A stretch of DNA of 63,249 bases, filler included, from Kipferlia bialata (lineage: Eukaryota), in NCBI GenBank assembly GCA_003568945.1. It is 5 parts of 4 records of this genome, joined end to end, with 100 filler letters (N's around TTAATTAATTAA, not from the genome) between each part and the next. Parts side by side here need not be neighbours in the genome. Positions count along the whole stretch, not along the records: positions 20,528 to 37,206 come from BDIP01000039.1; 4 more parts are not named here. One strand, 5' to 3'. A model generated the notes under the pieces. The model was not told the origin of the DNA. It made no database searches and saw only the letters and a program-made list of their open reading frames with translations. Below are positions 2,013 through 32,200 of this stretch, piece by piece. Within the stretch, counting starts at the first letter, position 1. Each line of letters starts with the position of its first letter. A program made the translations under genes and the position numbers.

Positions 2013-2046
<34 letters not shown>

Positions 2047-2431: not shown

Positions 2432-2466
<35 letters not shown>

Positions 2467-3904: not shown

Positions 3905-4386
3905 ATAGAGAGAGAGAGAGAGAGAGATGAAGTGTGTAAGAGAGAGAGAGAGAATGACTGAAGTCGTCTGCCGAATTCTGTTTCCCACTGTGTGTATTCA
4001 TTATGTTTGTGTGTTCAATTTCCTATCTTCAACCTCATCTAACGACTGAGATGTGGTTGGACCTGTGTGTATATCCAATAGAAAAAGAGAAACTATGTCA
4101 TTTGTCTGTTTACACCCTCGCTTCTGGAATGGTCGCAAAGTCTATTCAACCAAATACATCACTATTCGATATATCTACAATACATACTACACTACGCAAA
4201 CGTGGGCCCCTAACTACACCCACTCCGTGACAACACAATCATTGTCTAACCTGCCAATATTACAGATCCCAATGAATCCTACCCACACATACTCCTAATA
4301 GTGTGTCCCTTCACCAAATGTGTCGAGGCCATTAACTACACCACTGAAGGTGTAGTAGAATAGGGTTTTTAGACCAGACAGAGTTC

Positions 4387-5655
4387 TTACACGATCAGCC
4401 TGACCTCAGGTAGCTCCACCTGGATATCGGTGAGTAGCTCTCTGGGTACACGGGTGCCCCTGTGGTGAGACAAAGGGTGTACAATGAAACATGTATCTAT
4501 ACGTAGTCTTGACCAATGTGCTATCAGGTCCAGTAGACCAATATCTCCCCCTCTCTCTACATAAAGCATATTCATCTGAATGTAATCTACCTCAGTACAA
4601 TAATAATATATGAATATAGTATATATAGTATATACCTGAGCACTATGGTGTGCAGCCTTGGGCACTCTGCGATCAGGTCCAAGAGGCCTGAGTCACTGAC
4701 ACGGGTGTGGGATACATCGATGGACTCCAGACGCCGCAGGAGGCTGGGGGGTTAGTCTCTCTCTCTCTGGATACATATACATCTACAATACCAAGTCAGA
4801 GACAGCAGGAGTCTGGGGGGTCAGGTATCCATATATTCATTGCGCAGTTTCACGCGTACACATAGAGACAGTATTATAAAGTATATATGTCAATACCTAG
4901 CCACCCCCCTCAGTGCCCTGTCACTGCTCCTCTCTCTCTTTAACTATATACATATATATATATACATATATATATATACATACACTACATACCTTGCTAC
5001 TCTCCTCAGTGCCCTGTCTGTCACTGCCTCTCTCTCTCTCTATATATATATATATACATATACAAATCTTACACCATATATATAGAGTGTCTATACCTTG
5101 CCACCCTCCTGAGTGCCCTGTCTGTCACCGCACTGCCACTCAGATCAACACTCAGGGCACCACGAAGCAGGGCCTAGGGTGAGGGTATATATATGAGTAT
5201 ATGTACATGTCCATGTATATCAAACAATCTGGGGTGAGGGTTTGTATACGAATATGTAAATGGTTATCATACATACATCATACACTTTGAGCATGGATAC
5301 AATGGTGGTACCTTCTCGCCCTCTGTGACGTCCCCCTGTCTCATGGTGTGTGAGGCCGGGAGGGAGATGAGTCTTCTCAGCAGGGTAGAGGCTGGATCAT
5401 ACTCAGCCTCTCTCTCCCTCTCTCTCTCCCTCTCTCTCTCCACCTGTGGCACCGTTGCACGAACGGTCTCGGGGGTATCCCTGAGGTGACCTGTCCTCTG
5501 CCTGATAGAGTTCTCTCTCTCCCTCCCCCTCTCCCTCTCTGTGTTATCCACCTCGTGGTACATGCGGTTGATGCGTTTGAGGGTGTTGACGCCACGGCCT
5601 GATATATCAGGGTATATTCAGAGATATGTATGTATACATAGAGAATACTTGTGTG

Positions 5656-5695
<40 letters not shown>

Positions 5696-8600
5696 TACCT
5701 GCACTTGTGGGTCTGTTGAGCCCCCCTCTGTTGAGTGGACTCTTACCCCCTCTGGTCCTTCTCCTCCTGCCCTGGTCCACAAGTCGCCTGGTACGTCAGT
5801 ACATGCATATACACATACTGATAACATCTTACATATTCACTATAAAGAATACTGATTATTACCTTGTGCTCCGGAGCCTGTCTCCGCTGTCACCCTCTCT
5901 CTCACCGTCTCTCTCTCTGTCCACTCTCCTGCCTCTGGCACTGCCCCGACTGGCACTTCTCTCTCTCTCTCTCTTCTTTGTGGGTGCCCTTCCTCTCTCT
6001 CTCTCTCTTCCCTTACCCTTGGTGTCTAGGTCAGAGTAGGTGAGGGGGGCAGGCTCAGGAGAGGCACTAGCACCAGGCTGCTCCTGTTGCTGTAGCAGGG
6101 AGGAGAGAGAGAGATGCACACTGGGTACAGAGGCAGCTGGGGTTGGTACTCTCTCTCTCTCTCTCTCTCTGCCTGTTGTGGATCTGAGTCTCCTAGCAGA
6201 TGTGGGTCTCTCCCTCCCCCTCTCTCTCTGGGAGGTGACAGCCATCCTGCTCCTGCTCCTGGAGGCAGAACGGCCCCTGGCACGCTCCCTTAGTGTCAGT
6301 ATAAGAGAATCAATATACATTACTGTGAATGTTGTACACTCTTACCTGCTCAGGGCACGCATGTCTCTGGCTCTCTCTCTCTCAAGCCTCTCCCTCTCCA
6401 CACGCTCCCTCTCCTCTCTCTCCTCTCTCTCCTCCACTGCAACCCTGGGGGTGAGAAAAGATATACATATAGAACTCAGCTTCATACACATGTCTTGATA
6501 CTCATTAACACGTGTGTTCCAGCTTTCCAGACATCTCTAATGTATACACATATATGCATAAGAGTATACCTGTGTGCCAGCTTCGACACACTCCTGGACC
6601 GCTGTGTCAGGACAGACTTGGCCCGGTGGTGCTTGGTCTCACTCTCCCTGGGGTGTGAGATATACACATGTATACATATGAGAGACATGCACAAGGCTAT
6701 GGAGAAAGTATTCCCATACTGTATGTAATTTGCCCTGGTGCTAGGAGTCACTCTCCGTCGAGAAAAAACATGCAAATGATATATATAAATACATATACAC
6801 ATTCGTGTACAATATCAACAATTCTCCTATCCATACCTGATGAGCCGTGTGATGCTGGCGATGACGGGGGTCAGTTCCTGGGAGTCAGTACAGAAGCTAC
6901 TGATAGTATAGTGTTGCATATGTATATATTGAACATCAATACCTGAGCGTTGTCGATGGCGGTCAGCACCGACTGGGCCACGGATATCAACTCAACGAAG
7001 CGGTCGGTCAGGACCCTGGGCGTGAGATACACAATATCACAAGTGTCAAATGAATTTATAGATACCTGATCTGTGGGCTGTACTTGGTAGACATCCCCTC
7101 CAACCCCTCCTGTAACATGATGTCACGCTGCATCTCAGCTGAGGTGGGGCGGTGCACGCCCTGCAGTGAGTATGTTTAAAATTAGATGTATACTACTACA
7201 CTATGTAGAATAATGTACAATTGCAAATTCATAAAGATATATATATATGTAATCGGCTGAGGTGGGGGGTACACACCCTGCAGTAATACGATATACACAT
7301 AAATACTGTAGTGTACTAACTCAATCCCCACCTGCATCTCATCGACCACGAGGCCAAGCTCGAGGCCAATCTCTCTCTCCATGCCACGGAGGGCCTCGGC
7401 CTGGGGTTAGAACATTGATAAGAGAGATAGATAGAGAGAGATAGTATACCATGCGATTGAGAACCTCGGTCTAGTACTAGGCTAGAGTATGAAAGTATCA
7501 GTAGAGAGTGTGAATGTATATATCGGTGAATGAGATATATCCTCTTACCTCAGCCTCTGTGAGCTCCCCTCCCCAGATACCATCCCCGTCACCCTCTCCC
7601 TCTCCCTCTCCCTCTCTCCTCTGTCTGCCCTCTCTCTCCAATAGGGTCTTGACACGTCTGTCGGGGGACGTCATGTAGATGGAGTCTGTGTTAGGGTGAC
7701 TATTAACATACAGAGACAGAATACCCGTATATATATTGACACACCAACGCAATAGAAAAGAGAAAACTCAAACATACTACCTGCGATGCATATTGTCTTT
7801 GAGTATGCCTCTCTCACTGCCTCCTCTCTCTCCCTCAGCTCCTGCTGCCACAGGGCCTCTCTCCTGAATGTGAGAGATATACTTTACGCATTTATGTGAT
7901 GAATAGTGGAAATGACACAATCTATACTCACACACAGCTACACATGCATACCTAGCCTCATCCTCTCTGACGACTGTGTCTGTGAGGTGCTGCACTGTGT
8001 CACGCACACCGGAGAGCATGGCATCGGTCTCGGCCCTGAGGGTTGGGGACATACATACCCCGGTGTATTCATTCAATTCAATGTGTATTTTCACCCCTAC
8101 CTTGTAATGGCGAGTGTCACCATCTCCTCCAGTTGGCATACACAGAGATACATATATATATACATATATATATATATATGTAAAGACTTCACTCCGATAT
8201 ACATACCTTGTAATGGCGAGTGTCACCATCTCCTCCATCATCATTATAGATAGATACCTCAATAATTATAATGATTTACTACCGCATAACTTCATATAGG
8301 TCTTACCTTGTAATGGCGAGTGTCACCATCTCCTCCAGGATGTCTGAGCACACCCCCTCCACCCTCTGCCTCTCTCTCTCCTTCTCGAGGGCAACGGACA
8401 GACTCTCCACCATTCCCTCTCCCTCTCCCTCTCCGGTTGGACCCTTTAGAGACATGGCAACCTCTCTCTCTCTCTCTGTCAGGCCAATCTCCGCAAACTC
8501 ATAGTCCACAGAGACAATCTCCCGGGGGGGCTCGGCGGATACAGCGGCAACTGGCTTCATGGCCTACACAGTTAGTACAACGACTGCACGGAAATGTAGC

Positions 8601-11600
8601 TCAAACATCTAAGAACAAAACAATACAAATACTACCATATCAATACAAATATTACCGTAGTCGTAGAGGAAGAGAACTGCATGAACCATATATTGACTAA
8701 ACATACCATAGGCTTAGGGGGGGGTGGCAGGGCAGGTGCCAGCAGTCTCGAGACTATGCTCTTGATGGGTCTCTCTCCCCTGGGGGTTAGAGAACACTAG
8801 TATTCAATACATACATAATTGTATGTGAAACTCTAATTAGGTTCATACCTAGCATCCACCGGCTTCTTGGAGACAACCTCTCCCTCTCCCTCTCCATCGG
8901 TGAATGTGGCAAAGAGTCTCTCCCTCTCCACATCACCCCAGTAGGCACCATACACCACATACTCGGACTGGATTGTTAGTTATCTATATAGCAGACACAT
9001 AGGATGATGAGTATTTCAACAATTCGAAGAGCGATATTCGAGTACATATCAACAGTAGGCACCATCACACTTACTCAGACTGGGGTCAGTGATGTATACA
9101 GTGTGCAATATACTAACTAGCATTCAACACATTACCAATGACACTGTCCACTGTAGTGAACACATACAATGTACACTACATTCTAGATGTAAAGAATATT
9201 AAATATACATACCGTGACTGCCTCTCTGACGCTGTCTCTGGCCATGGACCTGGCAAGGGACACGGTCTGGGAGTGAGATGCACACATATACATGAATGAG
9301 TGTACTTGTTAGATCCAGTAGAGATAGTGATAATAGTAGAAAGGACACGCACCTCTGCCAGCACCGACTCCTCGACCCACCCGGCCTCTCCCTCTCCCTC
9401 TCCCTCTCCCTCTCCGTCTCCCTCTGTCTCTCTGTTGAGGAATGGGTTGGGAGCATAGCTAGACACAGCTGGGGAACCAGACCCCACCCAGGCAATGGCA
9501 CGTCTGAAGATTAGCGTGTATATATATAGTATTAGTTATCAAACTATATATACAGAAATAGACACACCCAGGCATTGCACGTCTGGGGGTGAGATGGAAT
9601 ATGTATAGAGAACACGTACAACCATATACATTATAGTCATGTATATATGTATATATAATAGTATAATAGTATATGTATAGTATGAAATACTGCTACTAAC
9701 CTCACTGGGCTGAGCACTGACAGGATGGGCGCCAGGGTGTCTGGACTGGGCCCTGGGTCCTCTCTGACCACACTGCCACGTCTGGACCTAACAGTTAGAC
9801 ATGTAAATACAGTACAGTACAGTAGTCAATGGTTGTGGTATCTCACTCTATAAAACATACCTGCTCCCCCTTCTGCTCCTCCTGCCACTCTTCTCTCTCT
9901 CCTGCCTCTCCTTCTCTGCTCTCTCTCTCTCTCTCTCCTCCTCCTCCTTGGCCCTCTGGGCTATGCCCCTCTCCTTGTCCTGTCTCTCACGGTGCATCTG
10001 AGAGACGGCCTCGGAAAGCTGTCTGGGGTAAGACTATCTTCACACACATTGTATATACAAAGAAGAAGCTAGTGTAATGTGCTAGTGCTTAGGTAAGAGT
10101 ACATAGGAGGATACATACTACGATAATATGGTACCTGCTCCTCTCCGGTGTGTATCTCCGCATGTAGCAGCACTCAAAGGTGGACAGGGGCAGGAGGGAG
10201 AGAGAGGGGACAGAGGAGAGCTCAGACAGAGGAGCAGTGTGGCAGAAGAACAGAACCTGGGAGTTAGGTGTACACATTGAATACACACTGAATACCACAC
10301 TGTGTACATGGTAACTATATGGATACCCTATCTACTATATCTACTATTATATATATATACATATATACTATAAATGTGAAAAAGATACATACCTGTGTGT
10401 CTGCGCTAGTGTTGATGGGTACCAGTCTGAGGTCGTAGAGACCAGAGACATCCAGAACAAGGGGGGACACACGGTCAGCCAGGGACTGGGGTGAGCATAT
10501 GAAATGGTAAAGAGAGAGAGAGGGAGAGAGAGAGATACATCCAGGACAAGGGGGGACACACGGTCAGCCAGGGACTGGGTTGGTATGTGAATATGTGGGG
10601 TCACTTATAGCGAAACACATGATATGTGAGAGAGAACTACGGGTGACACCTGCAGTGCCCTCTGGAAGCTCTGTCTGAACTGTGCCATGTCTGTGTCTGT
10701 CTCAACAGTGTCTGGGAACAGGGGCATGCCACCCTGGGCACGCAGCCTAAGGGTCTGGAGGTACTGATGGTCAGTAACTACAAATAGAGAGAGAGAAAGA
10801 GAGAGAGAGAGAAAGTGAGCTAGAGAAGCATGTCACCCTCGGCTACGGGAGGAGGTACCCGATCGAGCATGGCCATAAATACTAATGTATATATAATACA
10901 TACTCATTACCTCCATCTCCCGCGTCCCCAGTGTCTCCACCACCCTGTCCTCCCTATCAACAAGGGGTACCGATGGCACAAAGGACCAGTCGGAGTTGGG
11001 AACAGCAACCATGCACTCGCCGGCGGTGCTATCGCCTAGGGGTTAAGGTGGTACCTGGTGTGTACATGCATATATAGTATTAAAACTGGTGTTTGTGTAC
11101 CTGCGATGCTGAATGAGACTAGTGCCAGGTGCACTCCAGGTGCCAGCCTATCCACATCCTCTCTCTCTCCCTCTGCCTCTCCCGCCATGGATGGAAGGGT
11201 GGGGTGGGGGGCACTTCTGGCCATAGAGGAGATGAACCTAGAGGTGAGCCATGCAAAACACATATATCAGTGCAAATGAATATCAATTGATAGTATACCT
11301 AGTGTGTCTGAGGGATGGGGGTCCCCTGCTGGCCACGTCCAGGTGGATGTCAAGGAGGGGGTACAGGACAGACTCGACCTGACATTAAGTGGATTGCATG
11401 TATATAGCATGTGTACACTATATATATGAAAACATATATATGTGTGTGTGTAGGTATAATAAGAAAGGGTAGAGGACAGACTCAATCTGACTGTTAGCAG
11501 AGAGACAAATAACTGAAGGTGAGGGGGTAGACTATATGCCACATATATTCATGTCGCTAAAAATATGTATATATGTACATATGTATAATACATACCTCTG

Positions 11601-14600
11601 CCACCCCCATGCGTCTGAACAGGGCCTCCCTCTCCTTCTCCTGCTGCCTCTCTCTCTCCCTCTCATTGTCAGTGACTATAGCGGCAGGGGGCACCACACT
11701 GGCATCAGTGCAAGCAAATTTGTAGATATGTTTACATACCTAAGTATATATACACTTCTACATGCGTACAGCAGCATATTCATACATTCATGTGAATGTG
11801 TATATGATATTTAAGAATTATGGATCTCCATACCTGCATGCATAGAGCAGCAGTGCGTCTGTGTGGTGGGGTGTGATGGACAGAGACAGGGGGCGGGGGA
11901 AGGGGGTGAGGGTCTCCCTGTCAACTCGGAAGCCTGGGGGTCAGTTATCACTTGTATATGTATATGAATACATTGTCTACACCTAAAACTATACCTGCCA
12001 TGTCCATCTGTGTACATACAGCGTGTAGAGCAGCTACAATAATACCAAATATGCAAATACACAATACTTAGTGATTATCTATCTATGTCATATATGCTAC
12101 CTGCCATGTCTATGTGTGTACACACTGTGTGCAGGGCAGCCTTGACTATATATCATACATCTGTATATATACTATATATATATACACATGTTGTATATAT
12201 ATATATATGCCCTATCTACCTGCCATGTCCATCTGTGTACACACTGTGTGCAGGGCAGCCTTGACAGCTGGGTCCCCGTCCTCCAGAGAGGACAGGAGGG
12301 AGAGGGTGGCAGACTGGACTGGGGGTTAGAACTTGTAGTTATGTATACGTACAATGAGGCATATATACATATATACAAATAGTTTAGATGATAGGAGGGA
12401 CAGGGTGGCAGACTGGACTGGGGGTCATATATATATACATACTACTGCATATATATATATTGATATGAAAATGAATCAGGGGGACAGGGTGGCAGACTGG
12501 ACTGGGGGTTGGTGTGTGAATATATAAAATATACATGGATGTGAATCATACGGAAGAGGGTGGGGATACAAATGAAATATGGAGTACCTGACTGATCCAC
12601 CCCCAACAGGGCAGATGATGCCTTGGGAGTGAACTCACAGGAGGGGAGGGCAAGGGGCAGGGCCTGAGGGTGAGGGTCAATGAAACAATACTACATACAA
12701 TGGACGGGTACAAATATACACTGCGCACAGTACCTGGGAACAAAATTAAACATACGAGTATTGACTCTAGTGTATAAAATGTACAATACCTATGTACTAT
12801 TAGCCTTGTTGGGCATTGGGTATGAGAGTGTACATAAATAACACTGACTCTAGTATATATATACCACAATACCTGGGTACCATTAGCCTTGTTGGGCATT
12901 GGGTATGCCAAGGCCAGTGCAGATGCCTTGTCCTGTGCGCCCCCTACATTGACAGCCACAATATCTCTCTCTCCCTCTTCCTCTGTCTCATCGGACTCTG
13001 GGCATGTGCCAATGAGCACCACTCTATAGGTCTTGGTCTGCTTGGGCTTCTCTCTCTCCCTGGAGGGGAGGGCAGGGGGAAGACTGGGGTGAGACCGAGT
13101 ATCACTGTAACCACAACAGAATACACGCTTTCTCCCTCAGAATCGTATTACTATAATAATTACCACCAGTATACTATACCTAGCCATAGAAGTGGGTGGC
13201 TCTGCCCTGGATGTCGTCAGAAGGGACCGGAAGCCCTGGCCTCTGCCCTCCTGGGCACCCTGGGCGTGAGAGGGTTATAACATGATATATACTATATACT
13301 GAACAATTATGGAATTCACAACAATACGGTATTGCACATACATAGAGATTACACTCTTATGCCCCGGCCAGTAGTAATGAGTAACAATTATTATGAATGA
13401 AAATGGAACGTAAATCCCCTCCATGTACACGCTGAATGATACAACCTATTTGGCCTAGTAACGTAAACATGTATACTACCATTACCTTATCAGCCGAGTA
13501 CTTTGACGCGAATGACAGACTCATCATGTCATCTAGGACACATATATAGTAATATTGATATATATATATATACCTAAATACTCATATACGTGTAGTAATG
13601 AATATAGTACTCTTGTCTTACCTTATCAGCCGAGTACTTTGACGCGTATGACAGACTCATCATGTCATCCAGGACATGGTCCAGATGGGTCAGGAGGGCG
13701 TCACTGATGCCGGCACTGACGGCAATGTCCCTAGTGGTTAGAATACATATAATGCCAGTAGGTACATGCATATGACTGTATTTGGTACAAAGAGGATAAT
13801 AGTTTGTCACTGATGTCGGCACTGACTGCAACGTCTCTGGGGTGTAAGTACACACATACTCTTCTTCTACACAAACAATTAATATAGCAGCTATATATAT
13901 ATATAAATGGTGGTTGTCACTGATGCCGGCAATGTCCCTGGGGGCTCAGAATAATATACCGTACACACACATACACACATATATACACATATATGCATCC
14001 AAGTATATTAATGTACAAAATGTCCAGTACCTGAGCTTAGCGAGTGTCTTCCCTAGGTCAGGCTGGGCAGGGATAGGCCCAGGGTAGAGAGACATCTGCT
14101 CAGCGATGAGAAGCAGTCTCTCGACGGAGGAGGCATCTCCTGAGTGTGAGTGAGATATATACACTTGGAATATAAGCTGTGTACATTTGTGTACACACAT
14201 TCAGTACATTACATTCTACACTATAGCTAGTAAGACTACTGTGGATGACAAATAGTGGGCGTTCCCAAATGTATACACCACGTTATGAGCAGAGCTCACC
14301 TGACACCTCCATGTCTGCTGCCTGTGTTGTTACCATATCATATATACATACATATACATAAATATACCCAAACTACAATCTATCTATATATCTATATATA
14401 TATAACACTGTCCAATCACCTGACACCTCCATGTCTGCTGCCTGTGTCGTGATGGTGTGGCACCTATAATACACACTAATACACTACTATATACTGTCAT
14501 TCTCACCTGACACCTCCATGTCTGCTGCCTGTGTAGTGATGGTGTGGCAACTATAGAACATATCAATACACTACTATATATATATATATATATATATTAT

Positions 14601-17600
14601 AACTCTTTAGTACCTGACACCTCCATGTCTGCTGCCTGTGTTGTGATGGTGTGGCACAGCTGGGCAACGGCAAGGGCTGGAAGGTGAGGGAAGAGAACCA
14701 AAACGCATTGTCGCTCTACTATCTAAATACATATATATCAAATACATACCTCTGATGCGGATGTTGCCGAGGTAGAGTGTCCTGAATGCAGACAGGGCAG
14801 AGGGGAGGGCAGAGGGCTGGGGGTGAGGATGGTATAGTTATATACATATACTTTGTAAGTCAATGTATGTATATATATATACATCTATATGCAGACAGGG
14901 CAGAGGGGAGGGCAGAGGGCTGGGGTTGGAGGAGCGTGTATATACTCTTGAAATACTGGAATGGAAAGTCGCCAGGTGCCATGTAGTTTACATTGACCCT
15001 AAGAGACTCGTTGAGTATACCTAGTCATTGACTCAAACTATACCGTACATACATACCTTGACACTCATCAGATGAGCAATAGCACTATTGACCGACAGTC
15101 TGGAGCCCAGACCGGCACGGGTCTCTGGGTATGAGTGCATATTCTAAGTTTTAACGAATTATCTAAGATATATGTATGTACTGCTGTGCATACCGGACAT
15201 GAGTCTCTAATGAGGACAAACAAATTCACATATGGATATATGAAAGCAAATATGTAAATTTCTATACCGCGTGTGTTATACTACTATATACTACACTTAC
15301 CTGTGGGTGGAGGGAAGAGTGTGTCGATGTGTTCCATCCACACATCGGCAAAGGGGTAGATACTCTGCTTGGGGTCGGGGGTCAGGCGGCCTGACAGTAA
15401 GAATAATACATCCAGTTTAGGAAAATACATTTCTAATACATAGTCGGGGAGACACCATAGTATATACGTTATCAACGATATGGAGATGTCTTTCTCTACT
15501 GTTGAGATTGACTACTAATACTCACCTGACACATACTGGTACCACTTTGTGAGCCCCTCCACATACTCAGGACTGGGGGACAGGGCACGGTTGAGAGTGA
15601 GGGCAAACTCAATGGAGGCGCCCCTGATGTCAGTATAGAAGTGTTACAGATACCCAGAAGCACAGCAGCGTATACCGTGCAAGGGTGGCCAGTCTACTCT
15701 CTGGCACTGTACAATATAGAATACAAATATATGGGAGGCATACCTGGTTGCAAGGGTGGCCAGTCTCTGGCACTGTGCCACCTCTCTATCCACCAGAACA
15801 CCCCTGGTCTCAACAGGTGAGAGGGGGGTCAGGTGGGCCTCGAGGGATGCCTGGCGTCAGAGTGTTAATCTCTTTTATATACATATACATAGGAGGGTCA
15901 GATCGGCCTCGAGGGCTGCCTGGGATTAGTACATATACATGGATCTACATCCAAACATATACTTATGATATATCTTTTACACATGTTAACCGTGGACCCC
16001 ATAGACCATAGGCACAATACTCTATACAGTGCATGAGTGTATATATATATGAACATACCTGTGTCTCCTCCCTGGCCTTCCCCTTGCCCATGTCCACTAT
16101 GCACTGCATACCATCCACACTCAGACACAGCCTCTCCCGCTCAAGGTCGTGGTCTGGGGTAAGGCGGTAAGAAGCTGAGGTATTCTGCATGCAACGTGGG
16201 AGCATGCATTATATGAATATCTGACACATACCCGAGAGGATGTCAGCCGTAGCAGAGAGTGCTGCCCCGTATACCATGGGCAGGGACAGGGAGAGGGACC
16301 ACTCCACGGCCTGTCTCCTGGGGTGCCTGGGGTGAGATGGTGCATTGATAATGCTAAGAGTACACTATACTAGATAATCATAGTAAGCGTAAGATTGTAT
16401 ACAAACTCACGTTGTGCTAAGATTTCCATACAAAATTGCTACTGTGCATACCTGAGCAGCAGCAGCGCCCTTACTGGGGCCACTGCTCCCCCTGTCTCTC
16501 CCTCTGTGGGTGCCCTGACTGTTGTATCCTCAACCACAACTAGGTAGTGGGACCTGGAAATGAGATGTAGACATGGTATCTATATGTATAACACAATACT
16601 GTATATTTGAATACATACGTGTGCCCTGGCGCGTGATGAGACACTACAACTATAATAATAACCTATTGAGAGCACTTCTGTTGAGTGCATTGGGCACTGT
16701 CAGGGTGGATGGAAATATGTACAATGAATATATACTACATGTATTACACTACCACACAACTACCACACTATATATATAAGGAGTACCTGTTGAGTGCACT
16801 TCTGTTGAGTGCATTGGGCACTGTCAGGGTAGAGGGGTCAGGCAGCATGGGACCATCACTCTCCCCCTCCCCCTCTCTCTCCCTCTCTGCCATTGACCTG
16901 TACCAGGCATGGACAGGGGAGGCAAAGGAGGTCAGGGTGCACTTCACTGCGCAGTGGACCTTTTGGTTACAGAGGAGCAGTCTGAAATGTACTAATATAC
17001 ATATATTAATATGTACTGATCTAGTGTATCAATTATAATAGCGCCCTACCTTGACGCTCTTCCCCGTGGCTGACCCGAGCCAGGTGCTGATGTCACTGGG
17101 GGTGAGAATGGAAACATACATGGAACAAAACTCAATATATATATCAAAATATCTATATATAATGAAATTAGTATAAGCCAGGTGTTAATGTCACTGGGGG
17201 TGAGGATGGTAAAGACAACAATAAGTAATATGTTGTACTGTATACCCCCTATTCATATGTATGAGGAAGTTGGTTATATGAGTCAAAAATGTTCAGTTAT
17301 TGCTATTGTATATATAGTTATTAATGTGATGTACTGTGAATCTATACCCATGAGTGCTTATGGACCAATACATGTGTTTATTGTACCTGATGTACTTTGG
17401 CTCACATAATCTCAAGAGTATATGTAAATGTGTATGAATATATATATATATACAGTCATACATATTTACATGCATATGATACCTGATGTACTTTGACTCG
17501 TGTCCCTCAGTCACTGGGGGAGATGCCACCAGTCTCTGCCTCTCAGCGGCACAGACCTGAGGGTAAGAACAGATATATAAATAGGAGACAGTGAATACTA

Positions 17601-17670
17601 TATTCAATTTCTAGTCTGGTCGTAGAAGGAAACCTCTAAGAATGGGACATGGGAGGCAGAGTATTTCACT

Positions 17671-17701
<31 letters not shown>

Positions 17702-18631
17702 CTATCCATTACCTTGCGTGTCTCTGCCAGGGACACCTCTGAGAATGGGGCATCCTTAGCAATGTGGTCTGGGATGGCAGTCTTGGAGGCCTCGATCATG
17801 GTGTTGGCCCTGGGTTTAGATCGATGAATATAGAAGAATATAGAATACTTATGTAATATCATAGTAATACATTGAGTATACTACGTTATTGGATGCCTCG
17901 ATCATGGAGTTGGCCCTGGGGGGGTAGCAGAAAACAAAACTCCAATGTATATACTACAATATAAATTAAATGTATAATGTACTCTATCCCCGCAACGCAT
18001 GCAAATGTATAGAAGGTGTATGTATATATACATATTAGCATGTATATACCTTGGTGTTCCAGGTGCAAATGATGGGCTCCTCACCATGCCAGGGGACAGG
18101 ACAGTGCGGCGGAGACGCTCCTAGGCATAAGAATACATATAGAATACATATGCATTATTTCCTTAGAGGGAGATAATGTATACCGTTGGCCTGTGCTTGA
18201 GGCTGGCCATCCCCAAATAATGCATGTATACCAGAAATACCCACGTGTATATGTACACACTGCAATGTGTCCTAATATAATATACGAAATACATACCTTT
18301 GGCCTGTGCTTGAGGCTGTCTCTCCCCTGCTTCAGCAGGTCACTCTTCCCAGGCTGGACTGCAGCCTCTCTGGCAAGGGGAGAGGAGTGTCTGGGGTGAG
18401 GATCCGTTAATATATATGTGTATATGTATATATATACATCCTATATATTAGTAATTACGTATAAATAGCTATCACTCTGACCAGGGGGAGGAGTGTCTGA
18501 GTGAGGATAGAGATATACACAGAATACTATCCTGCCATATATATATACTATATATATATATTACCTGAGGAATGGTGACTCCTGCCCTACTGTTGTGGAC
18601 ACAGCACTATCCATACCATATATCCATATGT

Positions 18632-18672
<41 letters not shown>

Positions 18673-20046
18673 CCCTGATAAAATAGTTACTAATACACAC
18701 CTGAGGAATGGTGACTCCTGCCCAACTGATGTGGACATGGCAAGGGGAGATGGGGAGGGGAGGATGGGGGAGGGAGCTGTATCTCTCTCCCTCTCCCTCT
18801 CTATCTCAGGCTGAGGGGGGGCAGCGGGGGAGCCTATAGATTAGAGAGGGAAGAGGGATCCAGTAATATATACAAAAGACAAAGGAAATAATGTATATGG
18901 ATATCACTTTCGTATCATTCTTATTTATCGTATTATCGAAAGAGAGAAATCATGTATACTTCCCATACCTGTCATGGGGCATGGCTCCACGCCAACTGTT
19001 CTTATCACCCATTTCACAATACATATATTATCAATAGTAAGACTCTCTCTGTATACATAGTATACACTGTACCTGTCATGGGGCATGGCTCCTCGGGCAC
19101 TGTGCCCTGGCCAGCCAAGGGGTTGGCAGCCTCGGAGGGCTGGGGGTGAGGGGCCAGAAATACATAGAGGGAGAGACGAAAGGAGTGGGGGTTGGCATTA
19201 GAAACCCATATGAAGATATATAATATAGATATCGGTCTAGTATACCTGCTCCTGCTCCCATGTCCCCAGTGGCCTCACTAGTATGTATACCATACTAATA
19301 TGTACCTATTGATATACAGAGAGACAGATAGAGTATATAGACAGTCACACAGTATACCTGCTCCTGCTCCCATGTGCCCAGTGGCCTGACCAGTATGTGG
19401 GAGGCAGAGGGCAGCTTGAGGTCATGGACCTGGGCATGAGGGAATACATAGGTACACAGACACTGCATACTCAGCTCTCATAGTACGGAGACAATGGAAT
19501 ATGATATATAGTGGGAGACACACATACCTGGCACATATGTAAAGTAGTGTATACTCATACCTTTCCCACCAGGGGCAGGGGCCTTATGACATCCAGGTTG
19601 GGCTTGATCTCACACAGCTCATAGGCAGACAGATCAGCAACCTGGAAGGGTAAGGAGGGTTAGTAAGGACAGTGAATATTCATTATATATATACATATAT
19701 ATATAACACATCGATCTCACACAGCTCATAGCCAGACAGATCAGCAACCTGGAGGATTAGAAGTATACCTAGATAGAGGGAATATGTGGTGTTATCGAAA
19801 AAGGTTGAGGGGGGAGGGGGGGGGGGGTATCGAACACCATATACTGAGGAATCCGTCCATACGTATATCGGGGTACAAATATATACACATGTACCTACAA
19901 TGTAACATATTTACTCTACATACACGTATCAATACCTGCAGCTTCCTCCCTATACTCTTGAGCAGTCCCTCCATCTGTATACTGGCAGGTGCCACCACAA
20001 TGACAGGGGGAGTGGGCTTGGAGCCGGCATGCTCCTGGAACCTGAC
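4387..20046 (-). CDS. Large multi-exon (>45 exons) hypothetical protein with coiled-coil region and C-terminal LRR-like repeats; 5' end lost at the gap
   Basis: Continuous chain of GC-rich exons bounded by CCCAG/CCTAG acceptors and GT donors on the minus strand. C-terminus: ALLRGALSVDLSGSAVTDRALRRVA...LRRLESIDVSHTRVSDSGLLDLIAECPRLHTIVLRGTRVPRELLTDIQVELPEVRLIV* (TAA 4387-4389), an LRR-like pattern. ER-rich coil at 6350-6445. Not every phase was checked, so it could be more than one gene. Confidence 0.65.
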
Positions 20047-22981: not shown

Positions 22982-23029
<48 letters not shown>

Positions 23030-23049
23030 TTCCCCCCCCCCCCCCCCCC
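22982..23049. repeat. Poly-C run (probable mis-join point)
   Basis: About 68 nt of nearly pure C. Similar runs sit at contig ends (about 20552, 37311, 45116, 63214). Confidence 0.85.
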
Positions 23050-23075
23050 GTTCATCATCGGTCTGGTAACCTCAG

Positions 23076-23404
23076 GTTCAGATGGCCCTCTGGAAGGACG
23101 TCATTGACTTTGAGAGACTACTCGGTACGTGTAAGTCACTCAATTAACTGGGTCACTCTATGTATCTTATATGTATATATATATATCTTGTATTGACTGA
23201 AGTCATTGACTTTGAGAGACTGCTCGGTACGTACCACAGTATTCATATTATTCACAACAAATTGGAGATCCGTCCGACTATTTGTGACTATTCCTGACTC
23301 TCAATTGACTTTAGGCGACTCCATGCAGCTTGACGCTGGTCTCGCTGCCAACAGACTATTGTTTGTGTACGAGCAGGCACTGCTGCACCTGAGGTATACA
23401 TACA

Positions 23405-23441
<37 letters not shown>

Positions 23442-26400
23442 TAGTATATTCTTATGTATTCCAACTACTATTGTGTGTTTGATGTCAATGAGCAAGTACT
23501 GCTGCACCTGAGGTACTTTCTCTCTTCTATTCTGACTATGAATCTATGTAGTAATGTATTTGTACATATATTGGTAATCTCGTTATTTTTGTGTATGAGC
23601 ATGTTCTGCTGCACCTGAGGTACTCTCTATTTCATGTACATATACGGATATATACAGATATTTGTATTCCAAATAGTATTCTGGCTTTGATAACTCATAC
23701 ATACATATGTATATACTCGCTCTATCTTCGTATTCATATGGCGAATTTATAATCGTATTACCTATGTCTTTTTACCCCAGGCACTGGCCCGACCTGTGGA
23801 TCGAGGCAGCGGAGGTCATGTCGGGGGCAAGGTATATAAATATATATATTGCATTATATGAGTACTGACTATGTTTGCTGTCTCTCTCCCTCCTTTACAT
23901 ACTCTTTGTGGCTCTATGCATGATCTCTAGGACCATTGTGTCCCGCACCATTCACTCACTCTCTATCTTAGTATCTCTCTCTCTCTATATATATATCTAT
24001 CTACCCTTACCTCTAGAACTATCATGTCTCGCACCATGCTGAAGCACGACATGGCATACGGGGCACTGACTGGCAAGGAGATTGCAATAGGTGTGTATAG
24101 TACTTTATATATATATTCAAAGAGTGAGAGAGGGATACATATATATGATATGTATGAATATTGTTATATATACTCATCCCTAGGCCTTCTGCAAAAGGGC
24201 ATCCTGGCCTGTCCCAATATATATAGATACACACATATATATGCATTAATATTTAGTGTGGACCTAGTATATATGTATCTTATACTCACAGAGGGGCATC
24301 CTGGCCTGTCCCAATGTAGAATATCTATATATATACCGAGATATAGAAAAATATATATATATAATATAAATATAAATATATAATATAAATATAAATATAT
24401 AATATAAATATATATATATTGACTTCCAGGTCTGCTCCAGAGGGGCATCCTGGCCTGTCCCAAGTGTGCCCTGCTCTACATGTGTCTGGCAGACAGATAC
24501 GAGGAGGTACAGTATATATATATATGTATATGCAAATATTTGAATATATGTGTTTACTAACTGTATTTAATACTATCGATATGCCCTGCTATACATGTGT
24601 CTGGCAGACAGATACGAGGAGGTATATATACCAGTATAATATGCGTTGACATGGGTTATTGTCTAAATGGATTCCAATCATTGGTAGTATTGAATCTATT
24701 CTCAATCTAACAACTAGAACAACAAGCGCCACCTGGCCGATGCCGTCTACAGAAGGGCACTCATATCGGCACCCAGCCCAGCTCTATTCAGGTAATCTTT
24801 CTCTCATGTGTTCCATGTACTATCTATATATTACAAGCATGTGCTTATTGTATCCGCACCCAGCCCAGCACTCTTCAGGTACTGTGTGTATGTGTGTGTA
24901 TGTGTGTGTGTTTGTCTCTCTTCCTATTCTGGTACGCTCTCTCCCACTCATTCTCAGCGAGTACATGAAGTATGTCTCCCGCACCCGTTCAGTGGCTAAT
25001 GCGTTTATTTCCCATCTCTCTCTTTCTCGCTCTCTCTCTCTCCCTCTCTCTCTCTCTCTATCTAACTATAGTGAGTACATGAAGTACGTGTCAAGAACAC
25101 GTTCAGTGGCTGATGCCCTCTCTCTCTATCCCTCTCTCTGTCTCTCTAACTGTAGTGAGTACATGAAGTATGTCTCCCGCACCCGTTCAGTGGCTGATGC
25201 CCTTTCGGCATTTGAGCTGGCATGCGACGATCCCAGTAAGATTCTAGGTGTGTTACAAGCTCTACAATGTGTCTAGATTATATACACTACCCATGTTTGT
25301 ACTCTCTACATGCATATATGTATACCTAACCATAGGCTCTCCCTCTGTCCCCTCTGTCCTCTATGCCATTGTATATATACATCTCTCTCTATATATATGT
25401 ATTTATATATATTTATAACCCTAGGCTCCCCCTCTGTCCCCTCTGTGCTTTATGCCATTGTGGCCAGACTAGATACCCTATACATGTACTATATATATAT
25501 ATATACATATATCATATGTCTCACTATAGGCTCTCCCTCTGTCCCGTCTGTCCTCTATGCCATTGTGGCCAGACTCGAGTACCACGGGATGGGTCGGTCA
25601 GGCACAGCAAGGCAGAATGCTATCAACAGGTATAATATATATATATATATATATATATAGTATATTGGATATATTAGTATGTATATATACCACCGGATGG
25701 GCAGGTCAGGCACAGCAAGGCAGAACGCTATTGACAGGTATACCTATGTACAGGAGTCTATGTTTGACGATGTTTGTGAGTGGATAACCCCCTAGGTTTG
25801 AGTCTGGCATCCGTGCCAACCCCCTCCCCCCCCACCACCACACACACATTTATTTTGTATATTATTTATATGTATCATCTATATGTATCATCTATATGTG
25901 TCATCTATGTGTATCATCTATATATACACTCACGTCTCAGGTTTGAGTCTGGCATCCGTGCCAACCCCACCAATGCAGAGCTGCTCGCAGAGTATGTCAG
26001 GTTAGTATGTTCCCCCTCTCTCTTTCTCTCTGCCAACACCCTAATTTACACCCTTCGCGAAGGTGATCAAGTTATAAGGATTAGTATGTACTCTCTCTCT
26101 CTCTCTCCCGCTACACCCTTATTGCCAGGTTCCTGTCCGAGATGGGTGATGAGACCGGTAAGGTGGATGTCATCAACAGGTATGGGATACATATAGATAC
26201 AGAGTAGTTGTATAATGTATATGTATAGAATGCATTTCATAGTGTGTAGTACTAATACATTGACAGGCATGGTGGATGTCATCAACAGGTGTGTATATAT
26301 ATTTATGTACACATATATCATGCATATAAATAGTATGCATAGTATATACTCATATATATATATAGTGTATATTATTCTCATTCGGACTGGCATGGTGGAT

Positions 26401-26987
26401 GTCATCAACAGGTATCGGAATACATGTATTTGTGTTAGTATACAACGTTAATGCTTTCTGTACTCCTTATACGTCTCGTCACCAGATGTGAAGACAGCCA
26501 CTCAGACTCTGACACATGGAACACACACACTACCTGCTCAATGTTATATAACCATATACATTAATATATATATTTATTACTAACTCCAGATGTAAGGACA
26601 GCCAATATATATGTATATATATTGGTATAGAGAGAGAGAGAGATAGTTGCAATATGTGGGGTGTCGCTGCATGGTTGCCACATGTAGTTGTTAGTAATAG
26701 TGATATATGACGTTCTCCTTTCCTCCAGGTGCAAGGACAGCCACTGATACTGATGATAATATATATATATATATATGCATTAATATGTTTTTATATGTAT
26801 ATATGTATTTCTTACCCCTCAGATGCAAGGACAGCCACTCGGACTCTGACACATGGAACCAGTACCTGGTGTCACTGCAGATAGAGAGCGGAAAGAGGTA
26901 TATCCAGGGCTTACTCTATCTCTGCTATAGTGTCTCTGAGTGTATTGAGACACTAACCCTTCAGAACCGAGTCCCAGCCCCTGCCTG

Positions 26988-27034
<47 letters not shown>

Positions 27035-27668
27035 CTTTCTATTTTCTCTCTCTCCATACATCTACGTGTGTAAGATATCATACTTACATATCAGAACCGA
27101 GTCCCAGCCCCTCCACGATGCCTCTCTCTCTCTCTCTAACTCCTTCAATATGCAATATATGTACTAATGACATGTACTAACATCAGAACCGAGTCCCAGC
27201 CCCTGCCTGATGCCTCCCCAGCCGAGGGGGTGCTACTGAGACACAGTTACAGGTATATATACATTCTACATGATTTGTTTCTATTTATAACTATATAAAT
27301 TAGAACAGCCCCTACACACATTTATGTTACATATCTATTCTATATCTGTGTTTTGTACTATATCTGTGTTTTGGTGTGTCTACTTGTATCCACACTGACC
27401 CCCAGAGACCTTGTGCCCCTTGCCCCTGCCCTCCAGAGCTGCATAGCAATGAGGTATACTATTATATACATACATATATAGGCACATATGTATATTAGAC
27501 GAAAGTTTGTGAAGCACATCACATTTGCATATTCACCAGTATTTCCCCTCCAAGACTGCCAATATGGTTTATATCCCTGTATGTATGTATATATATATAT
27601 AGTAACCCCTAGAGGTGTCCAGTCCCTGCCATCCATGACAACCAGTATACTCTTTCTCTCTCTCTCTT

Positions 27669-27713
<45 letters not shown>

Positions 27714-27802
27714 ATATATATACGTATACTAACATCTAGGGGTGTCCAGTCCCTCCCCTCCATGACAACCAGATATACTCTTTCTCTCTCTCTCTCTCAC
27801 TC

Positions 27803-27837
<35 letters not shown>

Positions 27838-29136
27838 TAACCTCAGGGGTGTGCAGTCCCTCCCCTCCATGACAGCTATCTGTATACTCTCTCTTTCTCT
27901 CTCTCTCTCTCTCTTCGTATATATATGTATTCTTATATATACACATTTACACCCAGGGGTGTCCAGTCCCTCCCCTCCATGACTGGCGAGGACGAGACAG
28001 TCGGGTTCCTGGCAAGGTGTGTATCAGTATATAGGGTTATTAGTATATATATATGTACTAGCACTATTTGCATATGGTAGGCTCCGACCCAGTCGGCAGA
28101 CTCAATCCATAGATATGGATAAATTCATATACATACGAACAAGTACTAATTACAGGGTCCCCATCTCCGACCCAGCTGGCAGACTCATCATTTACATATA
28201 TATCAATATATTCATGTGAGTATATATACACATATGTAGGTTACCTTCTATTCTCACCCCTAGGGTCCCCATCTCCGACCCAGCGGGCAAGCTGAGGGCA
28301 GAGAGGATCACAAAGCCAGACTTCCCACGCCTACCTGGTATGTATTACATATATATAATGGTAGTATTGTATAAATATTATATTCATTATAATAGTGTAT
28401 ATGAGTGTCAGTATTCACTAGGCCAGACTTCCCACGCCTTCCTGGTACGGTATTGTATATATAATGATAGAGCTACTTATATTTGTTTACAATATTTTAG
28501 AGCAAGTGTCAGTTGATCAAGCCAGATTTCTCACGCCTGCCTGGTATGTATTGCATAAACATATATATATGAATATACATTAATTCTAAGTGACCTTTTC
28601 AATGAGTATTTGAATGGATTACATTTTGATATGTATGTATTTTTATCCCCTTCTTAACAGCAGTCTATGACGTTGTGAGTGACTCCGTCACCAACTATAT
28701 ATATATATATTTATATGTATGTATACTTGTCTGCATATCTCCCTCATATGTTTAACTATATATCCCCCTTCTAACCCCCAGTCTATGACGTTGTGAGTGA
28801 CTCAGTCACCAACAATATTAGTATATATATATATATATATTAATTATATACATAATATATATACATTACTAAAATCTCTCTCTTTTACCCCCAGTCTATG
28901 ACGTTGTGAGTGACTCAGTCACCAACCATATTCATATATATATATATATATATATACTATATATATATTATACCTACGTAGTAATAACTCCATATATATA
29001 TATATATATATATCTTAACCCCAGTATATGACGTTGTGAGTGACTCAGTCACCAACCCCAGAGGCGGGGCCCAGATATCGGCGGTATGGCTCTTTCTCTC
29101 TCTCTCTCTCTCTCTCCCTCTCTCTCTCTCTCTCTC

Positions 29137-29171
<35 letters not shown>

Positions 29172-29208
29172 TCACATATACAACCCCAGATATCGGCGGT
29201 ATGTATAT

Positions 29209-29245
<37 letters not shown>

Positions 29246-32200
29246 CTTCTGTATATAACCCCCAGCACAACCCTGTGAACCTGAGTATATATGTGTATAT
29301 GTCAATTAATATGTCTATCCATAATACCCCTCACCTCAGCACAACCCTGTGAACCCACTTCCCCCCACGGCTCCTGCCGCACTCAAGGCACTCTATGGCC
29401 TTCTTCCAGGTATATATATATATATTCATATGTATATATATATTCATATGTATATGTGAAACATAGCTTATATATGCATATACCCCACTGCACCTGCCGC
29501 ACTCAAGGCATTGTATGGTCTCCTGCCAGGTATTCTTTGATGTATGTGGATATATATTTTGACTCCTTTGACCTCTTCTGACAGATATCGTATGTATAAT
29601 TCATGTATGTGTAATGGGTACATGTCTGTATTAGATCAATATCTGTAAATACTTGTCGCGTGCGTGTATTGATTGTGTATGATATACATATATTGCTCTA
29701 TCTCACTTCCAGTCCACATGTCTGCTGTTCTCCCCCCCCTTGTGACAGACGTCATATCTATGTATTTATTCATATACATTTAGTAGAACAATAGTATTGT
29801 ATTGATAGTGTGGTCATACCTTACTCCAGTCCACATGTCTGCTGTCCTCCCCCCCCTTGTGACAGACGTCATAGTGGGTGCAAACAAGTGGAAGCCAGGT
29901 ATTGGATACAATTATGTGTGTAAATATGTGTGGATTCCTGTCTTGATTGTACATCTTGCATTTTGATTCAGTGAGACAAGTCCAAGTCTGATTTATAATT
30001 CCATGTCTTCATTGTCTGTCTCACCCCCCAGCCAGACGCGACCCAGATGGCCACCCGTACCTACCCACAAGGGCAGTCGGTACGTATCATATGTATACAG
30101 TGTGGATATATANNNNNNNNNNNNNNNNNNNNNNNNACGTATCATATGTATACAGTGTGGATATATATATGAATATATATGTATATGCATTTACTATGTG
30201 TCATATAGTATACCTACCCATAAGGGCTGTCGGTACGTATGCCTCTACTTATGTTCAAGTTTGGGCAAGACGAAGGCTGGGGAGAGTCACATTCCTATCT
30301 AGCAATTTATACGCGTAGACAGATAGATTGTTATACATATGTATACATATGCCCTCACTCCAGTGGCCACTGCCAATTGGTTGGGTGAGAAGGGATAGTC
30401 CCTTCCTATATATATGTATACATTTGTCCATTATTATTACTAAACCCTCTCTCCATATATATTTACTCTCTCTGACCCCAGTGACCACTGCCTACTCCCT
30501 GGGTGAGAAGGCGAGAGAGAGAGAGAGAGAGGAGGCAGAGAGGGAGAGAGAGAGAATCGAGGCCAACCGCAGACAGGCAGAGAGAGAGGTACATGCACAT
30601 GTATATGAATACCTGACATGCATATGAAATATATATATTTTTATATATATACTCGTACTATTGTGGATGTACTTGTAAACAAACACTAATTGTAGGGCAT
30701 CGACGCTCGCCGTGCCGAGAGAGAGAGACAGCTGGCCAAGGAGGAGGAGAAGGAGAGAGAGAGAGACAGGGAGAGAGAGAGGGCCAAGAAGGCAGTGGAC
30801 CCCAGGGCTAGGTACATGATTCTCTTCTGTTTCTAGTTATGGGTGTAGTTGTATAGTATATAGATATTTGAATATTTGTATTACTAGTTGTATGTATATG
30901 TATGTGTATGTATATACTGATGCCCAGGCCCGTTGACCCAAGGGCACAGGACCCTAGAGCCATGGATCCTAGAGCTATAGACCCCAGGTGATAACTGCAT
31001 CATATATGTTATAATATGTGTAATAAGTAAGGTATACGTAATGTTCTCTCTTTATATGCATTATCATTATATACCCATCATGTATGTATACTGACCGTCA
31101 GACAGGCCTCCATCGATCCCAGACAGGCAGCCGACCCTAGGTATGTGTACTTGTAGTACTTGGAATATTATATGTTTGATGTATGCAACCAAGTATATAC
31201 AGTCCATAATTAGAATAATCATTAGAGTTCATTCTATAAATTAATTTATATATATATATATTGTACACTGTGTATCTGCACTCACCGCCAGACAGGCAGC
31301 TGACCCCAGGGCCCAGGATCCAAGGTCCATCGACCCCAGGTATAGACAGACGTAAGGCCATGCATTATGTGGATATATGTATTCAAATATATATATATAT
31401 ATATATATATGTGTATATAGTTAATCACTCACCCGTCAGGCAGGCAGCCATGGACCCCAGGCAGGCTGCTGATCCCAGGTACATATATAACATACATACA
31501 TACATACATATATGTATGTATTCAGGCATGCTGCTGAACCCAGAGGAGTGGACCCCATGTATTCATATGTATACATATATATTCATAGTATGTATATGTA
31601 TACATCCTATTCTATCTTATATAGGTATATACACTCACCCTCAGACATGCTGCTGACCCCAGAGCAGTGGACCCTAGATCCATTGATCCCAGGTACGATA
31701 TACAAGAGATATACATGTGCTTATAAAAAATATATTGTGCCTCACTTTGAGTTATGGTGTCTCGCTATATACTTGCCCATTTAATGGCACGCTATATTTG
31801 TAGTATGTAAATATATACATCAATACATATACCTCACGTCAGGCAAGCCGGTTCCGCTGACCCCCGTGATCCAAGGTACGCTACCCTCTGTGTATATTAT
31901 GTATATATATATCTGTGTATATATGTATATATAGGTATTCATGTCGTGATCCAAGGTATGGCACACTGTCAACTCTGTAGATGATGTGTATACAATTATT
32001 TGTGTACTAGTACACTCTGTGAAGATATTTGTGAAAATGTGTGTATATTGATACTGGTGGTATATATGCTAGTACTGGTATATATGAGTGTGTATGTATC
32101 TCATATCCCTAGGATGCAGGCTGCCGACCCCCGTGACCCCAGACAGGCAATGGACCCAAGGTATGGGTATATATATATATATAAGTATATATACATTTAC

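Follow-up and report, generated by a model that had tools for sequence, protein, structure and literature searches.

Why should the introns of a protist gene carry copies of the edges of the neighboring exons, complete with splice sites, and why should those copies differ from the exons mostly at synonymous positions? The question is raised by a 63,249-nucleotide stretch of the Kipferlia bialata genome (GenBank assembly GCA_003568945.1; five contigs with N-linkers between them; hereafter, the window), and in particular by positions 25336 to 29060, within the gene for CstF-77. Here, an echo is a partial exon-edge copy that lies within the adjacent intron and carries the splice site. We report that partial copies of exon edges, arranged head to tail and with intact sites, are genuinely present in the introns and are skipped in the mRNA seen, and we propose that the echoes probably descend from working alleles about 0.2 apart in synonymous divergence (dS), were left by exon-anchored recombination, and are tolerated via exon definition.

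Exon-edge copies in the CstF-77 gene

Between 25336 and 29060 (Table 1), 20 echoes in 10 clusters were scored, of which 15 consist of an acceptor plus exon start (upstream of the exon) and 5 of an exon end plus donor (downstream); the splice dinucleotide, AG or GT, is intact in all 20. When every exon was compared, without anchoring, with the introns on either side of it, 37 segments were found across the 28 introns of the annotated model, all of them mapping to the 5' edge of the following exon or the 3' edge of the preceding exon, and the same exon edges gave 0 matches in 159 nonadjacent introns. All counts are limited to window DNA and exclude positions 45271 to 54855, an exact reverse complement (9,585 nt, 100%) of 20528 to 30112 that ends at an N gap and, judged from the sequence, is the same contig filed twice and no biological inverted repeat. 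Also left out were a 26-nt copy at 24289 that lacked an anchor, two weak copies (27536 and 28082), the CstF-77 tail after 30811, the segment from 54956 to 63249 (frames uncertain), and the first exons of a large minus-strand gene and of a gene at 1905 to 3904 that, by resemblance, is putatively ubiquitin-conjugating-enzyme-like (UBC-like).

Exon 22325 to 22639 is a 100% match to K. bialata KIPB_000364, and residues 449 to 677 of its protein (P0001) match Pfam Suf PF05843 (E, 4.9e-23, above the cut-off) and the solved CstF-77 chains 2OOE and 7ZY4 (E, about 1e-13); the gene name CstF-77 (Suf/HAT) therefore holds. All 28 introns of the annotated KIPB_000364 model are GT-AG.

A preliminary description of this region had listed codon differences within the clusters, and these were recovered from the sequence: TCT/TCC, CCC/CCG, GTC CTC/GTG CTT, and CTA/CTC between the copies at 25336 and 25425 and the exon at 25530; GTC/GTG and CTG CCA/CTC CCC, with AGA/AGG in addition, between those at 27613, 27740, and 27847 and the exon at 27957; the states CTA/CTT/CTG in PDFPRLP; and TCC/TCA, plus GTC/GTA, in VYDVVSDSVTN, across the splice junction. 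The three upstream flanks quoted there are correct, and the single proline-to-serine replacement is CCA>TCA in the 28519 copy. Lysine-to-arginine replacement is present as AAG>AGG in the 28415 copy, whereas the AAG>AGA form originally given lies immediately beyond the scored part of the 28156 copy, in sequence whose homology is weakening. The PDFPRLP copies, described as acceptor echoes, proved to be donor-side copies (exon end plus GT, downstream of the exon). Nor do the copies of a cluster represent independent events, because in alignment they often share both the exon end point and the spacer after it. When copies were compared by position, as the description had proposed, echo rank in the array showed no order with divergence (rho, −0.11; p, 0.53). 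Two of the 15 acceptor echoes in this range start with GT, so that the AG directly followed by a donor, which marks ratchet points of recursive splicing, is not a general feature of the echoes.

Extent across genes

Across seven gene models, 75 echoes (14 to 55 nt long) occupy 46 of 117 introns, with AG or GT intact in 71. Models other than CstF-77 are predictions, made with a small predictor and curated by hand under a last-acceptor/first-donor rule. The polarity (acceptor copies upstream, donor copies downstream) was followed by 76 of 80 unanchored segments, and donor echoes precede acceptor echoes in all nine introns holding both. The unit of echo plus spacer has a median of 106 nt (interquartile range, 97 to 116), and median intron length is 86 nt without an echo, 210 nt with one, and 300 nt with two. 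A blind scan returned 111 near-tandem repeat pairs, 91 of them touching a modeled gene; 88 of these include sequence of an exon or an echo, and the remaining 3 pair intron with intron, two of them being short echoes. Echo load is strongly gene dependent, with 0.5 to 1.7 echoes per intron in AT-rich genes and a single echo in the 22 introns of two genes at 37371 to 41956, where introns are short (51 to 134 nt) and GC richer.

The longest echo is 55 nt, gapped or ungapped, where 24 of the 75 would be expected to be longer under uniform breakpoints; truncation of long echoes by indels was rejected, the gapped maximum still being 55 nt. Acceptor echoes are followed by a donor-grade GT in 0 of 39 cases (background, 33 of 452 windows; with about 3 expected, this is a weak signal), and an acceptor stands at the start of 1 of 36 donor echoes. 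Splicing at an echo site would cause a frameshift or a stop in 69 of 75 cases and would stay in frame without a stop in 6. The innermost donor-acceptor spans (46 to 226 nt; median, 94.5 nt) are intron sized and are still skipped.

Synonymous bias

Between 25336 and 29060, 27 of 37 unique differences are synonymous (codon positions one, two, and three, 5/4/28). Two nulls were used, a neutral one (26.5% synonymous) and that of a dead echo beside a constrained live exon (41.9%), the latter being the right one; the observed share departs from both (p, 5e-9 and 1e-4, respectively). Over the seven models, 109 of 170 differences are synonymous (dead-copy null, p, 6e-9; other genes pooled, p, 1e-3). 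The ratio of nonsynonymous to synonymous differences per site (pN/pS) was 0.12 in the range (confidence interval [CI] by cluster bootstrap, 0.04 to 0.24) and 0.20 overall (CI, 0.13 to 0.30), with 0 of 4,000 bootstraps reaching 0.5, and echo dS was about 0.22. The synonymous share varies among genes (UBC-like, 10 of 11; CstF-77, 56 of 78; upstream gene, 7 of 8; large low-complexity gene, 34 of 66; contrast p, 0.002).

Mutation spectrum or context as the source of the silent bias was rejected by spectrum- and context-matched permutation (29 of 37 observed versus 10.2 and 14.9 expected; 0 of 200,000) and by a wrong-frame control (22 and 24 of 170 versus 117 of 170 in frame). Of 43 private changes, in which a single echo departs from a state shared by the true exon and the remaining echoes, 27 are synonymous versus 26.6% (p, 7e-7), and the echo lineages themselves were therefore under coding constraint. 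The private changes bear out the earlier suggestion that each copy was once a working acceptor, which is nonetheless incomplete: donors echo equally, other genes do so too, and the work was likely done on other haplotypes. Three states occur at four sites within clusters, and two nonsense changes were found in echoes. Neither a pN/pS of at least about 0.5 nor neutral private changes, as dead partial duplicates would have, was found, except that the large gene alone is undecided.

Splice sites and flanks

Splice sites were scored with leave-one-out matrices on the intron side only. Median acceptor scores were 4.0 bits for echoes (n = 37), 6.1 for true sites (n = 117), and −7.7 for random intronic AGs (n = 663), and in this comparison, which the preliminary description had called for, echo acceptors lie far above random and not significantly below true sites (p, 0.17). 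Donor scores were 1.6 for echoes (n = 34), 1.9 for true sites, and −0.1 for random GTs. An echo outscores its own true site in 15 of 37 acceptors and 16 of 34 donors. A strict branch-plus-YAG motif is present in 18 of 37 echo acceptors versus 90 of 117 true ones (p, 0.002) and 18 of 632 random AGs; echo acceptors are slightly decayed.

Flanks as conserved as the exon parts would have spoken for simple recent duplication, and they are not: identity of echo flanks to their own true flank is 65%, against a background of 61% and 92% for the exon parts. Echo flanks exceed the 95th background percentile in 14 of 75 cases, so that homogeneous minisatellite units are not what is seen, and flanks are near background even next to identical exon parts of 28 to 32 nt.

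Splicing and assembly

Two sequencing runs were used, a DNA run (X1, assembled separately) and a second run (X2) taken for RNA on the ground of a contig with exons joined at GT..AG, the RNA label itself being a guess. X1 may be the window's own source and so tests the assembly, not the sample. Single X1 contigs cross echo junctions with 0 differences at 26119 to 26979 (depth, 397) and 27929 to 28687 (depth, 371), similar to depths of 421 and 484 in echo-poor stretches. One 2,482-nt X2 contig (depth, 193) joins exons at GT..AG and skips 289, 153, 503, and 247 nt. Among the 25 pieces of its run, 8 are listed, with 5 joints, and every listed piece has 0 other letters. The fifth joint was aligned onto an identical echo at 28784 with TA between, and it is the last copy, at 29025, that begins with TA. 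The spliced mRNA seen thus uses the first donor and the last acceptor, and the echoes are silent; this is one RNA contig, and contigs cannot reveal minor splice forms.

Origin of the echoes

A two-locus Wright-Fisher simulation was run with small populations and lethal replacements in the working copy. Clonal conversion gave pN/pS of 0.84, 0.58, and 0.53; recombination between echo and exon, with conversion rising, gave 0.60, 0.16, and 0.07; and copying from the homologue's working exon gave 0.27 and 0.12. Four of the five settings with recombination or homologue copying thus fell at 0.07 to 0.27, and only haplotype exchange fell under 0.3. Serial duplication in one lineage cannot give a pN/pS below about 0.5, and the copies therefore most likely worked on other haplotypes; since echoes are unusable as exons (frame or stop in 69 of 75; no partner site), the simplest source is recently working edges on other haplotypes.

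We propose the following course. Synonymous divergence between alleles would be about 0.2, and introns rich in microsatellites would be unalignable between them, confining homologous pairing to exons. A break in an exon would be repaired by invading the homologue's exon, with about 100 nt copied across the splice site; the other end would be joined without homology, and the chromosome's former working exon edge would remain as an echo. Later crossovers or conversions within echoes would multiply units and refresh them from working alleles, leaving echoes young relative to allele divergence, and multiplication by exchanges inside echoes fits the shared end points and spacers within clusters. 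Tolerance would come from pairing across the exon (the nearest acceptor before the donor, the nearest donor after the acceptor), and echoes longer than about 55 nt or with a donor behind them would be purged. The published entries for K. bialata show Spo11, Dmc1, and polymerase theta but neither Rad51A nor Ku70 (PMC8516963); Dmc1 is described as stabilizing mismatched triplets (PMC6719624).

Several observations weigh against this course. One recombining setting, with weak conversion, stayed at 0.60. In the large gene alone the dead-copy null is not rejected (34 of 66; p, 0.069; pN/pS, 0.32; CI, 0.16 to 0.62), and the same holds for a small minus-strand gene (2 of 6 synonymous). Third-position changes from true copy to echo run GC to AT in 51 cases versus 25 in reverse (p, 0.004), where equal alleles predict symmetry; the skew may reflect some dead time or selection for a more exon-like true copy. 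There is no proximal-distal gradient of the synonymous share (62 of 89 versus 55 of 91; p, 0.21). Intron flanks are more diverged than a dS of 0.2 allows without extra slippage, and a microsatellite index at distal joints gave p of 0.15, with several ends, by eye, running into dinucleotide repeats. Polarity outside CstF-77 is partly circular, those models having been curated by the last-acceptor/first-donor rule. DNA and RNA contigs carry no other letters and give no sign of heterozygosity in the sample. No second strain or allele was found, a protein search with the CstF-77 region returning P0001 only (a blank that says nothing on diversity), and the allelic divergence is therefore inferred, not seen. 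Scans of metagenomes with one exon and with P0001 likewise found no relative, blanks that carry no evidence on diversity. Prp40, SF1, and U2AF35 went undetected in K. bialata in published homology searches (PMC6679479).

Relics of one or a few hybridizations or genome fusions, in which the same exon-anchored recombination acted on past diverged parents and not in a standing hyperdiverse population, would leave the same synonymous signature and would suit a sample without visible heterozygosity and the overdispersion of synonymous differences per echo (X2, 100.4; df, 74; p, 0.022); we consider them unlikely, given the four three-state sites within clusters, the lack of an excess of zero-difference echoes (19 versus 16.2 expected), and the differing flanks among copies of one cluster. 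Somewhat less probable still is that echoes are translated now, or were until recently, as minor alternative 3' or 5' ends or as worn mutually exclusive exons under protein-level selection. Translation would account directly for synonymous bias and intact sites, and with a single RNA contig seen, rare forms could be lost in contigs; against it stand the frameshifts and stops in 69 of 75, the missing partner sites (0 of 39 acceptor and 1 of 36 donor echoes), the same half always being kept (76 of 80 segments), and an RNA contig with the letters of the last or first copy. Tandem duplications of the ordinary kind, arising within a single lineage as copies that never functioned, whether or not gene conversion acted locally, would explain the geometry, and the slight acceptor decay, the GC-to-AT drift, the two nonsense changes, and the large gene alone are compatible with them. 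If the silent bias came from selection on the live exon alone, however, 42% synonymous differences would be predicted rather than 109 of 170 and a pN/pS of at least 0.5 (0.53 to 0.84 in clonal simulations) rather than 0.20; the largely synonymous private changes speak against it, and flanks should decay about as fast as exon parts but do not. Dead duplication is largely refuted for CstF-77, and we hold it to be quite improbable as the general origin.

We give just as little credence to echoes being kept coding compatible as high-rate DNA templates or by programmed direct-repeat excision, with each copy in turn serving as the exon for some of the population: a deletion joining any echo to the true exon would leave a working gene, but exposing an echo to selection would, by argument, also erase the pair, the conversion analogue gave 0.53 to 0.84, and no shortened form was seen among the DNA joints listed (107 more are unlisted). 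Very improbable, finally, is an assembly artifact in which reads of divergent genotypes from one culture were stitched in tandem. Alleles would differ in precisely this way, the unit of about 100 nt (median, 106) is close to a common read length, the window has other flaws (a duplicated contig, a likely mis-join, and gap-flanking repeats), and the DNA run, as its possible source, is then not independent. Yet the separate assembly of that run gave single contigs over echo junctions with 0 differences and depths of 371 to 397 versus 421 to 484, mid-exon-to-spacer junctions are absent from any simple allele, the RNA shows a single form with no other letters, and two short-intron genes hold 1 echo in 22 introns.

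The proposal of exon-anchored recombination among working alleles has a wider form, which we regard as evenly poised: that one genome here archives the allele history of a population, with exon-limited, mismatch-tolerant Dmc1 recombination and polymerase-theta joining stacking former edges in about 40% of introns, so that a metamonad would be shown to have cryptic sex and a synonymous diversity close to 0.2, and that a reduced spliceosome picks the outermost sites among equal decoys by exon definition despite short introns.

Relation to known systems

In human F7 intron 7 (IVS7), the downstream donor copies of a 37-bp variable number tandem repeat are functional but silent, and the most upstream donor is used (PMC1557585). 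The likeness lies in a unit that spans the exon-intron boundary with an intact dinucleotide and in silent pseudo-sites (here, in one RNA contig). F7 IVS7 is one locus with donors only and near-identical units, whereas in Kipferlia 46 of 117 introns are involved, acceptors (the last being used) as well as donors, intron parts are near background, and exon parts bear a protein-coding signature. Vertebrate duplications mediated by synthesis-dependent strand annealing are closely linked, span 50 to several hundred bp, and can copy exons and splice sites (PMC2671141); unlike the Kipferlia copies, they are rare and templated by nearby DNA of the same genome, and the available text of that source describes no allele-like synonymous divergence. 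In the Rogers model of intron gain, tandem duplication of an exonic AGGT supplies both ends of a new intron (PMC3443670). Local tandem duplication touching splice signals is common to both, but in Kipferlia existing junctions are copied, no new intron arises, and no acceptor echo is followed by a donor. Under the exon-centric proximity rule, the sites nearest across the exon win in human introns over about 250 nt, short introns being intron-centric (PMC9225289); site choice in Kipferlia matches the exon-centric rule, yet the innermost, intron-sized spans are passed over.

Tandemly duplicated mutually exclusive exons, such as those of Dscam, are complete, each copy having a splice site at either end and being translated. 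They share with echoes an exon-derived origin and synonymous bias, but an echo comprises half an exon, is skipped, and in most cases would break the frame. Known already are junction-spanning repeats with silent sites, repair-mediated duplications, and duplication-born introns; new here are the density of echoes, the copying of donors as well as acceptors, and a coding signature stronger than dead copies would give. The literature searched (without subscription journals or the supplements of the genome paper) held no description of these copies in Kipferlia. The genome paper reports 124,912 GU-AG introns, and its main text, as available, has 0 occurrences of "duplicat," "ploid," or "heterozyg" and nothing found on these copies (PMC5874029).

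If echoes are former alleles, diversity, per-gene constraint, and recombination become readable from one genome. To our knowledge, sex has not been observed in K. bialata. Introns that are longer where they hold more echoes would also point to a self-feeding route of intron growth. Whatever the origin, dozens of equally strong decoy sites per few genes form a natural duplicated-splice-site experiment in a short-intron protist, so that exon versus intron definition becomes directly testable in a reduced spliceosome, for which 87 of 174 searched proteins are reported (PMC6679479). Echoes also mislead gene prediction (the predictor called mini-exons) and read mapping (the aligner misplaced one exon) in this genome.

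Table 1. Echoes, working exons, and modeled genes in the window
Feature	Coordinates	Strand	Evidence
Acceptor echo of exon 25530, 37 nt, 1 synonymous difference	25336..25372	+	Sequence
Acceptor echo of exon 25530, 49 nt, 5 synonymous differences	25425..25473	+	Sequence
Working exon, last acceptor and first donor	25530..25629	+	RNA piece 25527-25625, 0 other letters
Donor echo of exon 25530-25629, 50 nt, 4 synonymous and 2 replacement differences	25688..25737	+	Sequence
Acceptor echo of exon 25941, 28/28 identical, flank at background identity	25796..25823	+	Sequence
Working exon	25941..26000	+	RNA piece 25938-25997
Working exon	26129..26179	+	Annotation; own length equals 51-nt gap separating listed RNA pieces
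Two donor echoes of exon 26129-26179 (26262-26288, 26385-26411)	26262..26411	+	Sequence
Three acceptor echoes of exon 26823 (26486-26522, 26590-26604, 26729-26745)	26486..26745	+	DNA contig 26119-26979 across them, 0 differences
Working exon	26823..26897	+	RNA piece, GT..AG joint
Two acceptor echoes of exon 27187 (26965-26994, 27095-27124)	26965..27124	+	289-nt RNA joint skips them
Working exon	27187..27252	+	RNA contig
Working exon, upstream intron without echoes	27406..27453	+	GT..AG RNA joints
Three acceptor echoes of exon 27957 (27613, 27740, 27847), each 27 nt, spacer in common	27613..27873	+	503-nt RNA joint skips them
Working exon	27957..28016	+	RNA contig
Acceptor echo 28156-28181 of exon 28264; weak extra copy 28082-28098	28082..28181	+	Sequence
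Working exon	28264..28337	+	RNA contig
Two donor echoes, PDFPRLP (28415-28444, 28519-28543)	28415..28543	+	DNA contig 27929-28687 across them, 0 differences
Three acceptor echoes of exon 29025 (28664, 28782, 28895)	28664..28927	+	Sequence
Working exon	29025..29083	+	RNA: TA after 28337 donor, specific to this copy; three echoes have TC
CstF-77 (Suf/HAT) gene, C-terminal part, 21 modeled exons, echo host	23076..30811	+	Pfam/structure matches; GT-AG junctions
Large unnamed gene, modeled: 56 GT-AG-bounded exons, 2,025 aa, no stops; 30 echoes in 55 introns	4385..20046	-	Model
Presumed UBC-like gene, modeled: 6 echoes in 9 introns; 10/11 differences synonymous	1905..3904	+	Model

Gene models and further observations

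The KIPB_000364 model appears to merge two genes over a poly-C run at 22983 to 23049 (window positions 22961 to 23075). A 4,655-nt RNA contig tracks the exons upstream of the fusion point and has a loose end at 22961, where RNA depth drops from about 400 to 50, and the CstF-77 RNA contig has about 1 kb of 5' sequence beyond what the exons of this DNA contig supply; positions 22961 to 23075 are likely a scaffold mis-join. CstF-77 extends beyond its annotated end over a 24-N gap (exons 30482 to 30588 and 30696 to 30811), and its tail after 30811 consists of short DPR-like peptide repeats to about 32400, with echoes there too. The short N gaps at 30113 to 30136 and 42546 to 42557 have identical direct repeats on both sides (about 30 and 43 nt, respectively), which, from their sequence, are taken as scaffolding overlaps and not echoes.

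The large minus-strand gene matched no annotated protein, the search being limited to 2,000 aa and the model, at 2,025 aa, being incomplete. One minus-strand echo, at 13924 to 13937, is exactly 9 nt shorter (in frame, between short repeats) than the true exon and its sister echo. More echo clusters lie at 54956 to 57450 and 61900 to 62450 on the minus strand, with frames uncertain; the echoes at 56709, 56805, and 56902 and at 61995 and 62137, which have well-conserved flanks, are probably young. Positions 58800 to 60400 are GC richer and almost intron free, with long open frames, unlike the neighboring genes. In 104 of 117 modeled introns, a branch-like motif is nearly fixed 10 to 12 nt upstream of the 3' end, a fused branch-acceptor layout.

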